Part shown: piece by piece, positions 9,216 to 27,690 of the stretch
How positions within the stretch are numbered: the first letter of the stretch is position 1
Layout of the letters: every line of letters starts with the position of its first letter
Origin: Dictyostelium discoideum
Taxonomy: Eukaryota
DNA: 64,000 bases
Assembly (NCBI GenBank): GCA_000004695.1
Contig: CM000151.3
Span: forward strand, 4,448,001 to 4,512,000
Direction: 5' to 3'
Translations under genes and position numbers: made by a program
Notes under the pieces: generated by a model
What the model was told of the DNA's origin: nothing
The model's database searches: none
Seen by the model: only the letters and a program-made list of their open reading frames with translations

Positions 9216-12200
9216 TCAATTATATCTTGAAACCATTGCAATTGAATTATCACCAAAATCATCAGCAACATTTTCTTCTAATTCCAATCTATTTGATCTA
9301 TTGAAACAAGAGGAGATTTTACTATAGAGTTGGAATAAGATTGAATCATTTGGACAATGAATTGAGATTTTCTTTCTCAATTGACTAAAGGTACCAAAGG
9401 AACGATAATTTTTCAAATGAATATTGAGTTTACATTTTGCGACGATATTTACCAATTTTGAAATTTCAGACAATGGGAAAGACCAACGATAGATACCTTT
9501 CTTTGATAAACAAATCAAAGAATGAGAAGTTAAGAGTAGAGTACAATCTGGTAGAACCACATGGAATTTATATTCCATTTTAGAGGATAGCGGATTACCT
9601 TCACTCTTATTGATATCATCCGAGTTCTTTTTCAATAAAAAGTTACCTTCACTCTCGTCGACAGAATATTCTTTAATTGGTTCTCTTGGATTAATGAAAC
9701 GTGGTGTTCTTAATCTAAATCTTTCTGGATGAATGTTTGTATTGTTTCTTATACCTTCAGATGTTTTACTGGCGAAATCAAATACACCAGTGACTGGTTT
9801 GACAGCAATACCTAAAACACCTTTACCACAACCTTTAAAGAAACCTAATAGACCCTCTTGCATAGCGCCACGAACTGGATGTTCAACAATACCAAAAACA
9901 CCATCAATTATACCCATTGCAAAACCTTTTGAACCTAAATAAAAGCCATGAGCAATATGTTTTGCTTTAACCTTTTCTTCAGCGTCACGTCTTCTTAAAT
10001 AAGTTTCATCCAATGACCAAGTTGCAAAACCACTTGAAATTGTACCAAATAATTTTGAACTACTATTTGCAGCTGCATACAAAATTCTCTTCATTAATTG
10101 AATTGAACCCATAATTGGATCTTCAATGGCTTCAGTCATACCAGTACTAATATTATTGAAAAATACTAATGGACTACCAAAGATATTAGATGAACCCAAT
10201 ATAACATGAATTTGTCTTTTCATTTGTTTAGTATAATGTGATGATAATAATTGAGTTAAATTATTCATTGTTGTAAATATATTCTTTACACCTAATTGAT
10301 TAATATTTAATGGTGCATTCTCTAATTGACCTAATGATTTACCTAATGATGGAATTACTAATCTAAGTGCTGGCATTTTACTATTTTTTAAAGAAAAATA
10401 AAAAAATTAAAAAAAAGATATTAATAATTTCTCATAATTATTATTATTATTTATTATTTATTATTATTATTTTTTACTTACTTATAATTACTTAAAATAC
10501 CATCTCTTGAAATACCAAAAGTTAAATAAATTTTAATTTCAGCAAAAATTAACCATTTAATATAAAAGTTTTCAGGAATTATACCAGGTTGTTCAGTTTG
10601 AGGTTGTTGTTGCTGTGGTGAGGATGGTGAAGAAGTTGGATCAACATAAATTGTACCATTAAATTTATGAATTGGAATCTTTTGATAGAAATTATTTAAA
10701 TCTAATAGAGTTTTATCATCCAATTGAATATACATTTCATTAAGATACAAGGCGATTAAATCATAATATTTCAAATTCTTTTTCTTCATTTTAACAGCTG
10801 AATACTCTAAGAAAGGTAATGCTTGACTCTCTTTTTTCTTATCACACCATAATAAAACCGGATAGTCAGTATCGGGTTGTTGATTATCAATTTGAATATC
10901 GTCAATAATTAACCAAGTTGTTTCAGTCAAGTTTGACTGAGAAGTCCAGAAATTGAAATCTTTAAATGCAACATAAATTAATTCTTGTGGTACATCATCA
11001 ATAAAACTAAAACCAAGATTTTCAAATGAAATATCAAATGCAAATTCTAATGTATCAAGTTCTTTAGTTACACGATGTTTAGTTGTAAATAATAAATCTC
11101 TAGTTGTACCATTTGATGATTCAACAATTGGGAAAATCTCTTCTTTTAATAATTTAACTGGTTTAAATACTTTAATCTTATTTAAATTAATATCTTGTGT
11201 TATAATTGGTGATGTATCTTGACCAATATTTTGATTTTCATTATTATTATTATTATTATTATTATTATTATCATTATTATTTTTATCATTATTATTTTTA
11301 TTATTTTTATCATTATTTTTATTTTTATCATTATTATTTTTATTTTTATTATTATCATTATTTAAATTATTATTATTATTATTAATATTATTTAAACTAT
11401 TATTTAAATTACCAATGTTAATACCACCATCATTATGATAATGAACAGTTAATTTTCTTTCACCACTTGGGAAATCCCAAGTAAAATATCTATCTTCATT
11501 TGGTTTTAAAGTATATTTCTTTGAATTTGGATGTTTTTGTTGATAGGAAATGATAGTTTTAGTTTCATTTTTAATATGGAAAGGTAGGTTTTGAGGATCA
11601 TTACTATAGAAATAAACCATTGTTGATTCAGAGGTATCTCTAACTTCAACTTTAATGGATTGTTCAATTAAATCATCATGTTGATGTTGAAGTTTAATAT
11701 AGTTTACACCAATTTGATCGATACGCATACCACCAGACCATTTCCAAGAGGAATCACTTGTACCTTGACCAATTGAAATTGAGAGTTGTTGTTCCTCTTT
11801 ACCATTGAACCAATGAAATGGAATGGATGATTCTGGTCCCAACAATTGTGAATCTTTTGCCATAATTGCCAAATCTTTATTAACTTGAGTATAGGATAAT
11901 GAAATGGGTAATTTATTAACCAACACGAATCTTGGATAAATATCAACGATACGAGTTCTAAAGAAAATATTGAAACCAGTTGAAACTATAGCTTTGAATT
12001 GGAATCTCATTTGATCTTTAGAGGCGTCGAATTGAATTTCAATGATATCTTCTTTACCCAATATGATATCAAATTCCTTTGAAGGTATCTTTGGTGCTGA
12101 AGGATGATAACAATAGAATTTATCATGTGAGATCATCAATGGATCACCATTAGTTTCCAACGTTAGAGCATTCACTAATTTCATATTTGATGGTCTTAAT

Positions 12201-27200: not shown

Positions 27201-27690
27201 TCTTCTTCATTATACTAAAATGAAAAAATTTTAAATTAATTTTTTTTTTTTTTTTTTTTTTTAAAAAAATGTATTTATATATATTACTTACATCAAAACC
27301 AGTTTGAGGTATTGCATATAATGAAATACAATCAATATCGAATATAACTGGGCTAGATTTTAAATTCTATAATAAATAGGTATGTTAATATAAAAAAATA
27401 AATGAATAAATAAATAAATAAATAAATAAATAATAATAATAATAATAATAATAATAATAATAATAATATATCCGTACAGTCCATGGTATTTTTAAAGTTA
27501 AAGTACCAATTATACCTTTTTGTACATGTAATGGTAATTTAAATGATTGTAATGCTTCACCTTTAATCTCTAAATTCTTTAAAACTACATTTCCTGAGAA
27601 TACATTAATCTTTAATTGCTCTGAACTAAGATTCTTTATATATTCTCCAATGTATTTTGCTATAATATCGGCTACTAATGATTCAAACAT
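9216..27690 (-). CDS. vps13: VPS13-family bridge-like lipid-transfer protein, ~6,060 codons, four exons: 27478..27690 (71 aa); 27292..27366 (25-aa micro-exon); 10482..27214 (one 16.7-kb exon); 9216..10380. The introns are 27367..27477 (GTACGG...TATAG), 27215..27291 (GTAAGT...TTTTAG) and 10381..10481 (GTAAGT...AATAG, phase 2).
   Basis: The chorein-N start MFESLVADIIAKYIGEYIKNLSSEQLKINVFSGNVVLKNLEIKGEALQSFKLPLHVQKGIIGTLTLKIPWT aligns with the yeast and human VPS13 N-termini. The micro-exon NLKSSPVIFDIDCISLYAIPQTGFD corresponds to yeast [22 protein letters not shown]. Exon 3 opens YNEEEEKKNQLELKRKKLEKFELIRSF...KQDTFMTSVMTKILNNIQVKIQSFHLRYEE, which matches human ...KQDTFAEKLVTQIIKNLQVKISSIHIRYED. 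The last exon carries the ATG2_C-like amphipathic region GFYLGSKGFAMGIIDGVFGIVEHPVRGAMQEGLLGFFKGCGKGVLGIAVKPVTGVFDFASKTSEGIRN, which matches human ...[34 protein letters not shown], and a C-terminal PH-like tail. The track ORFs 10478..27085, 9216..10376 and 27385..27690 are pieces of this one gene. Confidence 0.85.
15928..16040. repeat. (GTT)n on plus, equal to (CAA)n on the coding strand. It encodes a ~40-residue poly-Gln tract inside the VPS13 exon.
   Basis: Read directly. It produces the spurious poly-Val ORF 15925..16125(+). Confidence 0.9.

Follow-up and report, generated by a model that had tools for sequence, protein, structure and literature searches.

VPS13 proteins link two organelles and move lipids along a hydrophobic groove (PMC6168267, PMC7613979). 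The canonical members, such as yeast Vps13 and human VPS13A, have about 3,100–3,200 residues and 12 repeating beta-groove (RBG) units, and they share one order of parts: a chorein N-terminus, the groove, the VAB domain, a C-terminal groove or ATG2_C-like region and a PH-like domain. The VAB domain sets VPS13 apart from ATG2. Longer members of the family are well documented. In VPS13C and VPS13D the central units RBG5-7 are duplicated (Kumar 2018; Levine 2022, PMC7613979), and the VPS13 proteins of Chlamydomonas (7,192 aa), Plasmodium (9,307 aa) and Toxoplasma (13,455 aa) are larger still; their added length has been ascribed to additional RBG domains and to a groove of greater length (Levine 2022, PMC7613979). 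Dictyostelium discoideum has six VPS13 paralogs (Leiba et al. 2017, PMC5484366). Here we describe one of them, vps13B, which occupies 9216..27690 on the minus strand of a 64-kb window of chromosome 2 (contig CM000151.3, positions 4,448,001 to 4,512,000); the window is this whole stretch, and all coordinates below refer to it. We hold with high confidence that vps13B is one gene of four exons, that its product is a bridge-like lipid-transfer protein of the VPS13 family with 6,061 residues, and that the length of this product comes from reiteration of the central groove together with low-complexity tracts.

The three minus-strand open reading frames (ORFs) of the locus, 27385..27690, 10478..27085 and 9216..10376, lie exactly where an earlier note on this DNA had placed them. 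That note had joined them, by way of a hidden 25-codon exon, into one VPS13 gene of about 6,060 codons. The four exons join to an 18,186-nt coding sequence of 6,061 codons with a single stop, at its end, and an in-frame TAA is found three codons 5' of the ATG. All three introns are of the GT..AG type with 6–8% GC, and the third interrupts the codon for Asn5674 (AA/T). Exon 3 contributes 5,577 open codons. With a stop probability of about 0.093 per codon, corresponding to one stop expected in about 11 codons, the log10 probability of meeting none is about -237; the open frame is far beyond chance at the local base composition. The other two frames of this exon contain 372 and 1,147 stops, and a search for an in-frame, AT-rich GT..AG candidate intron inside exon 3 found none.

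The predicted splice model is based on canonical splice signals and on gapless homology across all three junctions. Vps13 from C. thermophilum (6cbc, 9yrm) and human VPS13A (9yg4) align without gaps from residue 1 through the junctions of exons 1/2 and 2/3, in the order ...LKIPW/TNLKSSPVIFDIDCISLYAIPQTGFD/YNEEEE.... Because the solved VPS13 N-termini align without gaps across exon 2, its 25 codons are needed for an intact conserved N-terminal domain, and the exon supplies the conserved segment after KIPW, as the earlier note had proposed. The term micro-exon used there is too strong: the exon is present, but a strict micro-exon has about 30–50 nt or less, so that 75 nt make a small exon. An AlphaFold2 (AF2) model of the N-terminus calculated with 10 homologs places a strand at residues 79-91, within exon 2; with a mean predicted local distance difference test score (pLDDT) of 42 this model is of low confidence and was used as a hint on secondary structure only. 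At the third junction, the sequence ISRDGILSNY-N-KMPALRL corresponds residue for residue to an ortholog fragment from Heterostelium album (SRDGILSNYNK(M/L)PALRL), including the Asn of the split codon. The splice model that had been drawn by eye was therefore accurate, down to the 75-nt exon and the split codon. The ORF of exon 4 (MPALRL..., 386 aa) is also stored as a standalone 'protein' (P0036, 100% identical) from Logan assemblies with contigs of at most 1.6 kb, an ORF-calling artefact of short contigs.

The assembled product carries the Pfam families VPS13_N, VPS13_M, VPS13_VAB and VPS13_C in canonical order, which agrees with the assignment to a single VPS13-family gene. VPS13_N (PF12624) covers residues 1-1655 and aligns to profile positions 1-1316 of 1317 with 1,303 bits, and phmmer matches to 9yrm, 6cbc and 9yg4 likewise begin at residue 1, with E-values from 9e-73 to 5e-53. 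By sequence homology, VPS13_M (PF25033) is assigned to residues 1673-3127 with an E-value of 2e-115, within which individual tiles reach 1e-68, 3e-50 and 6e-28, and a second pass is assigned to residues 3467-4286. VPS13_VAB (PF25036) fills profile positions 16-569 of 570, and the PH-like VPS13_C (PF25037) matches at residues 5897-5999 (profile 1-101 of 114, E 1e-10). For the analysis of collinearity, we used a canonical profile of 3,034 positions built from 31 canonical-size VPS13 relatives. Residues 4795-6038 are collinear with positions 1927-3028 of this profile (524 bits) and also align to a VPS13C chain at 3207-3658 and to the C-terminal chain of VPS13A in the PDB. Word-index homolog searches were of little use: the N-terminal 600 residues returned only fragments, none longer than about 900 aa and with some 30% identity, from a candidate list that was probably flooded by poly-S/Q/N words, and residues 3474-3859 returned no matches. 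The exons, introns and regions of the protein are collected in Table 1.

Table 1. Exons and introns of vps13B and regions of the encoded protein, in the order of transcription (window coordinates; profile positions refer to the canonical VPS13 profile)
Feature	Position	Strand	Description
Exon 1	27478..27690	-	213 nt; residues 1-71 (MFESLV...LKIPWT); start of chorein/VPS13_N domain
Intron 1	27367..27477	-	111 nt; GTACGG..TATAG; 8% GC
Exon 2	27292..27366	-	75 nt; residues 72-96; NLKSSPVIFDIDCISLYAIPQTGFD
Intron 2	27215..27291	-	77 nt; GTAAGT..TTTAG; 6% GC
Exon 3	10482..27214	-	16,733 nt, uninterrupted; residues 97-5673 and two bases of codon 5674
N-terminal groove region, residues 97-1303	23594..27214	-	Collinear with canonical VPS13, profile about 1-1115
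Extra central region, residues 1304-3429	17216..23593	-	2,126 aa (1,581 outside and 545 within low-complexity segments); reiterated RBG-like units matching profile ~1033-1588
Rest of middle groove, residues 3430-4266	14705..17215	-	Collinear, profile ~1101-1784; includes Q33 tract at 15929-16027
Linker preceding VAB, residues 4267-4669	13496..14704	-	Mostly low-complexity (T16; N31 at 14216-14308; S/N-rich); almost without profile match
VAB domain, residues ~4670-5348	11459..13495	-	Pfam E 2.3e-100; 43% identical to Acytostelium ortholog
Intron 3	10381..10481	-	101 nt; GTAAGT..AATAG; 7% GC; phase 2
Exon 4	9216..10380	-	1,165 nt including TGA at 9216-9218; residues 5674-6061; putative C-terminal groove/ATG2_C-like region, and VPS13_C (PH-like) domain at 9405-9713

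Much of the extra length of Vps13B lies in its middle. Residues 1-1810 are collinear with profile positions 1-1469 and residues 3402-6038 with positions 1101-3028, thus positions ~1101-1469 are covered twice. The sequence between the two collinear flanks matches the central block of the profile only, and it does so repeatedly: after deletion of the low-complexity segments, the extra region gives four passes with independent E-values (iE) of 1e-8 to 1e-12, all on profile positions 1033-1588. As controls, the reversed and the shuffled region give negative bit scores only, canonical proteins give one pass over the central block, and for human VPS13C the published duplication is recovered as a double cover of profile positions 859-1316. 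A BLAST comparison with a canonical-size VPS13 of Acytostelium (P0042, 3,146 aa) jumps from D. discoideum residue 1303, aligned to P0042 residue 1110, to residue 3430, aligned to P0042 residue 1121. The 2,126 residues of the extra region therefore fall where the canonical protein has a gap of 10 residues. When the middle region is compared with itself by BLAST, internal similarity is weak (best E 5e-5 over 83 aa), so that the repeats are visible only at the profile level. A count of amphipathic beta-strand segments was discarded, as 15 were observed compared to 17.1 +/- 3.6 in shuffled sequence.

A unit scan, for which the central profile was split into RBG-sized sub-profiles, resolves the reiteration further. 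In canonical controls each unit is found once and in order. In the D. discoideum and Acytostelium proteins two unit types alternate, and the series then closes with the three final units of the canonical order. The D. discoideum protein has 13 detected units between residues ~990 and 4255, together with about three gaps of unit size, compared to six units in canonical proteins. The reiterated block appears to consist of a module of two units, repeated in tandem about five times, and the period of the full block is ~515 residues in D. discoideum. From the scan we estimate some 8–10 extra RBG-sized units and a total of ~20–22. Copy number and register are approximate, because the internal copies are 11–17% identical to each other (a rough figure; hmmalign of five copies placed copy d poorly) and RBG units cross-match weakly.

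The closest comparison for the extra region is the ortholog in Acytostelium subglobosum, an organism with a genome of 47% GC. It is annotated on DF837576.1 (L009:1-10918) as two genes, a 4,615-aa model that carries VPS13_N, VPS13_M and VAB and, directly 3' of it, a 305-aa model (SAMD00019534_027230). The two are separated by a missed GTAAGC..ACAG intron (at about L009:9873-9928) at the junction of YNKQMKRQ and IHIILGSSNIFG, and the stop of the first model lies inside this intron; the true ortholog has ~4,950 residues. Examined as a 3,021-aa ORF, the Acytostelium sequence contains 8% low-complexity residues and shows five passes over the central block (iE 1e-13 to 1e-63). Its alignment with D. 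discoideum Vps13B stays collinear all through the extra region, where identity is 21–28%, compared to 40–71% in the flanks. Because of this collinearity with an ortholog so poor in low-complexity sequence, the extra central region is, as judged from homology, ancient and lineage-conserved and not filler. The faster divergence of the added units relative to the flanking canonical ones suggests relaxed or different constraint.

Several observations weigh against a four-exon gene with a continuous, lengthened groove and should be named together. The introns are predicted from splice signals and homology, and the continuity of the groove through the extra region is likewise deduced from homology. 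The low identity of the internal copies and the weak cross-matching of RBG units belong here as well. A single-sequence AF2 model of residues 2280-2930 has a mean pLDDT of 30.8 and is unusable. The search of the assembled product that the earlier note had proposed found VPS13_N, VPS13_M, VAB and VPS13_C, but Pfam ATG_C had no match in the 6,061 residues even at E ≤ 1; a regular-expression search of the protein for a strict FFAT motif was negative, too. In both points Vps13B differs from canonical VPS13, beyond being ~3,000 residues longer. Part of these data would fit residues 1304-3429 lying outside the groove, as degenerate, looped-out or accessory sequence, with a functional rod near canonical length: the extra copies evolve faster than the flanks, have diverged strongly from each other and yield no confident AF2 fold. 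We nevertheless regard this as improbable. The VPS13_M tiles fall within precisely this region, Pfam detects no accessory-domain family in residues 1304-3429, the region is kept collinear, unit by unit, across the dictyostelid radiation, and in VPS13C and VPS13D there are precedents in which duplicated units lengthen the groove (PMC7613979).

Low-complexity sequence is the second contributor to the length. With a SEG-like mask (12-residue windows, entropy ≤2.2 bits), 1,438 residues (24%) in 47 segments are classified as low-complexity, including runs of Q33, N31, N18 and T16. The median length of 67 full-length relatives is 3,200 aa, in line with the estimate of the earlier note that the protein has about twice the canonical size, and the masked residues account for about half of the excess of ~3,000 residues. 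The statement that the excess consists of low-complexity insertions thus does not hold; the larger single share is the extra central region, most of which is not low-complexity. The related claim, that such tracts stand mainly between conserved positions, is borne out. The collinear part (residues 1-1303 and 3430-6061, together 3,935 aa) occupies 2,802 of the 3,034 positions of the profile; insert states take up 65% of its low-complexity residues, and its largest inserts are homopolymer tracts and the linker preceding the VAB domain. The protein had also been called exceptionally large, which the protist proteins of up to 13,455 aa contradict.

The insert states and the clearly species-specific N-rich tract at residues 5354-5437, whose 84 residues correspond to about 10 in Heterostelium, are what a canonical 12-unit rod inflated to 6,061 residues purely by low-complexity insertions between modules would be expected to display. 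This explanation is largely refuted, and we consider it very improbable, since 4,623 residues remain outside the mask, ~1,500 above the canonical profile, and the 1,581 such residues at 1304-3429 are without a collinear canonical counterpart and yet match the central block repeatedly. The Acytostelium ortholog, at ~4,950 aa, is also far too long for its few low-complexity residues. About 1,900 residues above canonical size are common to this ortholog and Vps13B, and the other ~1,100 are peculiar to D. discoideum and mostly low-complexity. The possibility that each ORF is a gene of its own, or that the giant frame reflects an assembly artefact or a pseudogene, is refuted for practical purposes: the 386-aa entry from short contigs and fragment models in other species could be read that way, but homology is gapless over all junctions, the domains follow the canonical order, the long open frame is not a product of chance, an independent strain assembly has the gene and the Acytostelium ortholog is collinear.

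With exon 4 as query, 'hypothetical proteins' were recovered from A. subglobosum (305 aa), Tieghemostelium lacteum (225 aa) and H. album (757 aa). The Heterostelium protein XP_020433271 (P0037), annotated as a standalone 'vacuolar protein sorting-associated protein', aligns to Vps13B residues 5214-6058 with 54–60% identity and is a C-terminal fragment model of the vps13B ortholog. The ortholog is annotated as at least two genes in A. subglobosum, and probably also in H. album and T. lacteum. The earlier note had expected automated annotation to split or mis-start the gene at hand. In D. discoideum this did not happen, as there is one gene (XP_644147/Q555C6) and, in a second strain, one product that starts at the same ATG; split models do occur in the three other dictyostelids, where the break is C-terminal and does not fall at the 75-nt exon. 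In T. lacteum (LODT01000037.1, L008:1-20678) the 225-aa model DLAC_08474 is 76% identical to the C-terminus of Vps13B, no giant gene precedes it, and several gene models of 350/351 aa are repeated on either side. It could belong to an ortholog that a transposon has disrupted or that was misassembled, or be a stray fragment.

For the four-exon gene with a lengthened groove, a mode of action can be outlined by analogy with other VPS13 proteins. The N-terminal chorein end would dock at the donor membrane, lipids would slide along a continuous hydrophobic groove of RBG units, the VAB domain would bind organelle-specific adaptors, and the ATG2_C-like and PH-like C-terminal end would engage the acceptor membrane. 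Two separable causes would account for the length of the protein. The first is an ancient reiteration of the central groove, which would have added 8–10 RBG-sized units. The second is the insertion of poly-N, -Q, -T, -S and -D tracts typical of D. discoideum, about 1,440 residues in all, which lie for the most part in loops and linkers and so could leave the groove uninterrupted. Scaled from Levine 2022 at about 2 nm per unit, the predicted rod of ~20–22 units would measure ~40 nm, compared to ~20–25 nm for canonical VPS13. The data further incline us, with modest confidence, to the view that the dictyostelid Vps13B orthologs form a conserved 'long-rod' class of VPS13, with ~20–22 units, a length of ~40 nm and a roughly five-fold reiteration of two units that is independent of VPS13C and VPS13D and predates the split of Dictyostelium and Acytostelium.

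The comparison with human VPS13C and VPS13D is the most direct. All three proteins have grown by internal duplication of central groove units of ~450–500 residues. In Vps13B, the reiterated block overlaps RBG5-7 but is shifted C-terminally (profile ~1030-1590), and while the central block is present twice in the human proteins, it is present about five times here, apparently as an alternating two-unit module. The reiteration in Vps13B would have arisen independently, in the dictyostelid lineage. With the giant VPS13s of other protists, Vps13B shares a length far above the canonical one; it differs from them in being smaller, in its additional ~24% of low-complexity sequence and in belonging to a genetically tractable host.

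The locus is the annotated and named D. discoideum gene vps13B. Three ORFs elsewhere in the window match proteins of D. discoideum AX4 chromosome 2 exactly: 36019-39468 is DDB_G0274919 (XP_644152), 43792-45969 is DDB_G0274653 (XP_644155) and 60759-61952 is DDB_G0274461 (XP_644161). In a second D. discoideum assembly, in which accession numbers run in chromosome order, four genes lie between XP_644152 and a gene with a 6,045-residue product. Given the sequential numbering and the four intervening genes, XP_644147 is this locus. The gene has also been linked to UniProt Q555C6 in the literature. In the second strain (GCA_054883475.1, L001:21734-23450), the first 1,717 nt of the gene are 99.9% identical to window positions 25974-27690, with 2 mismatches and no gaps, and the 6,045-aa product starts at the same ATG as the 6,061-aa model. 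The AX4 entry Q555C6 we take to be 6,061 residues long, 6,045 being the length in the second strain; the difference between strains is presumably a repeat-length polymorphism in homopolymer tracts.

XP_644147 is listed as Vps13B in Table S1 of Leiba et al. 2017 (PMC5484366) and is already part of a published phylogeny. The letter in this name is nomenclature and does not indicate orthology with human VPS13B, the Cohen syndrome protein. According to Levine 2022 (PMC7613979), none of the D. discoideum VPS13 proteins has a specific relationship to human VPS13B or VPS13D. The closest PDB matches of the vps13B product are fungal Vps13, VPS13A and VPS13C. The gene, its family, the existence of larger VPS13 proteins and the growth of VPS13C and VPS13D by central duplication are all already known. 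The literature that we found is silent on the exon structure, size and internal architecture of vps13B, and a knockout phenotype was not found in the literature searched; vps13A, vps13F and tipC/vps13C have been studied.

The divergent neighbour of vps13B, at 28400-30843 on the plus strand, begins 709 bp from the vps13B ATG. It has two exons separated by a 77-nt intron, which unite the listed ORFs 28400-28909 and 29062-30843 in one gene. Its 788-aa product, which has no Pfam match, begins with a signal-peptide-like sequence, contains many N-x-S/T sites and has a hydrophobic segment in its C-terminal part. Elsewhere in the window, two actin genes, 7464-8594 (+) and 47093-48223 (-), stand ~39 kb apart in opposite orientation. 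Both code for one and the same 376-aa protein, the major actin, with 1,122 of 1,131 nt shared between the coding sequences; an identical-protein look-up returned six other loci for this actin. The plus strand further contains, at 51240-56150, an open frame of ~1,636 codons whose first Met is codon 195. The frame is without a Pfam match and coincides with a strong AT skew at 52–54 kb. Asn makes up 18% of its residues, with runs of 48, 44, 36 and 17, and there is a T16 run as well. Triosephosphate isomerase is encoded at 33777-34490 (+), a Stealth CR1-CR4 protein at 48721-50102 (-) and a Myb-domain protein at 57983-59167 (-). No tRNA genes were found across the entire 64-kb window.

The finding as the earlier note had stated it re-derives a known gene of a model organism and by itself changes nothing. 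What can be added is modest: a reiterated two-unit central module, conserved in dictyostelids and shifted relative to the VPS13C/D block, which we did not find stated in the literature searched. Its value may lie in the organism. With Vps13B, a naturally lengthened bridge-like lipid-transfer protein is available in a host where knockouts and truncations are routine, and Levine 2022 (PMC7613979) raised the open question whether the number of RBG units matches the width of the contact site. vps13B could serve to test this. If it is true, a long-rod class implies a dedicated wide membrane contact in a haploid, tractable amoeba, and module-by-module shortening of the protein could probe whether the length of the bridge determines the width of the contact site.

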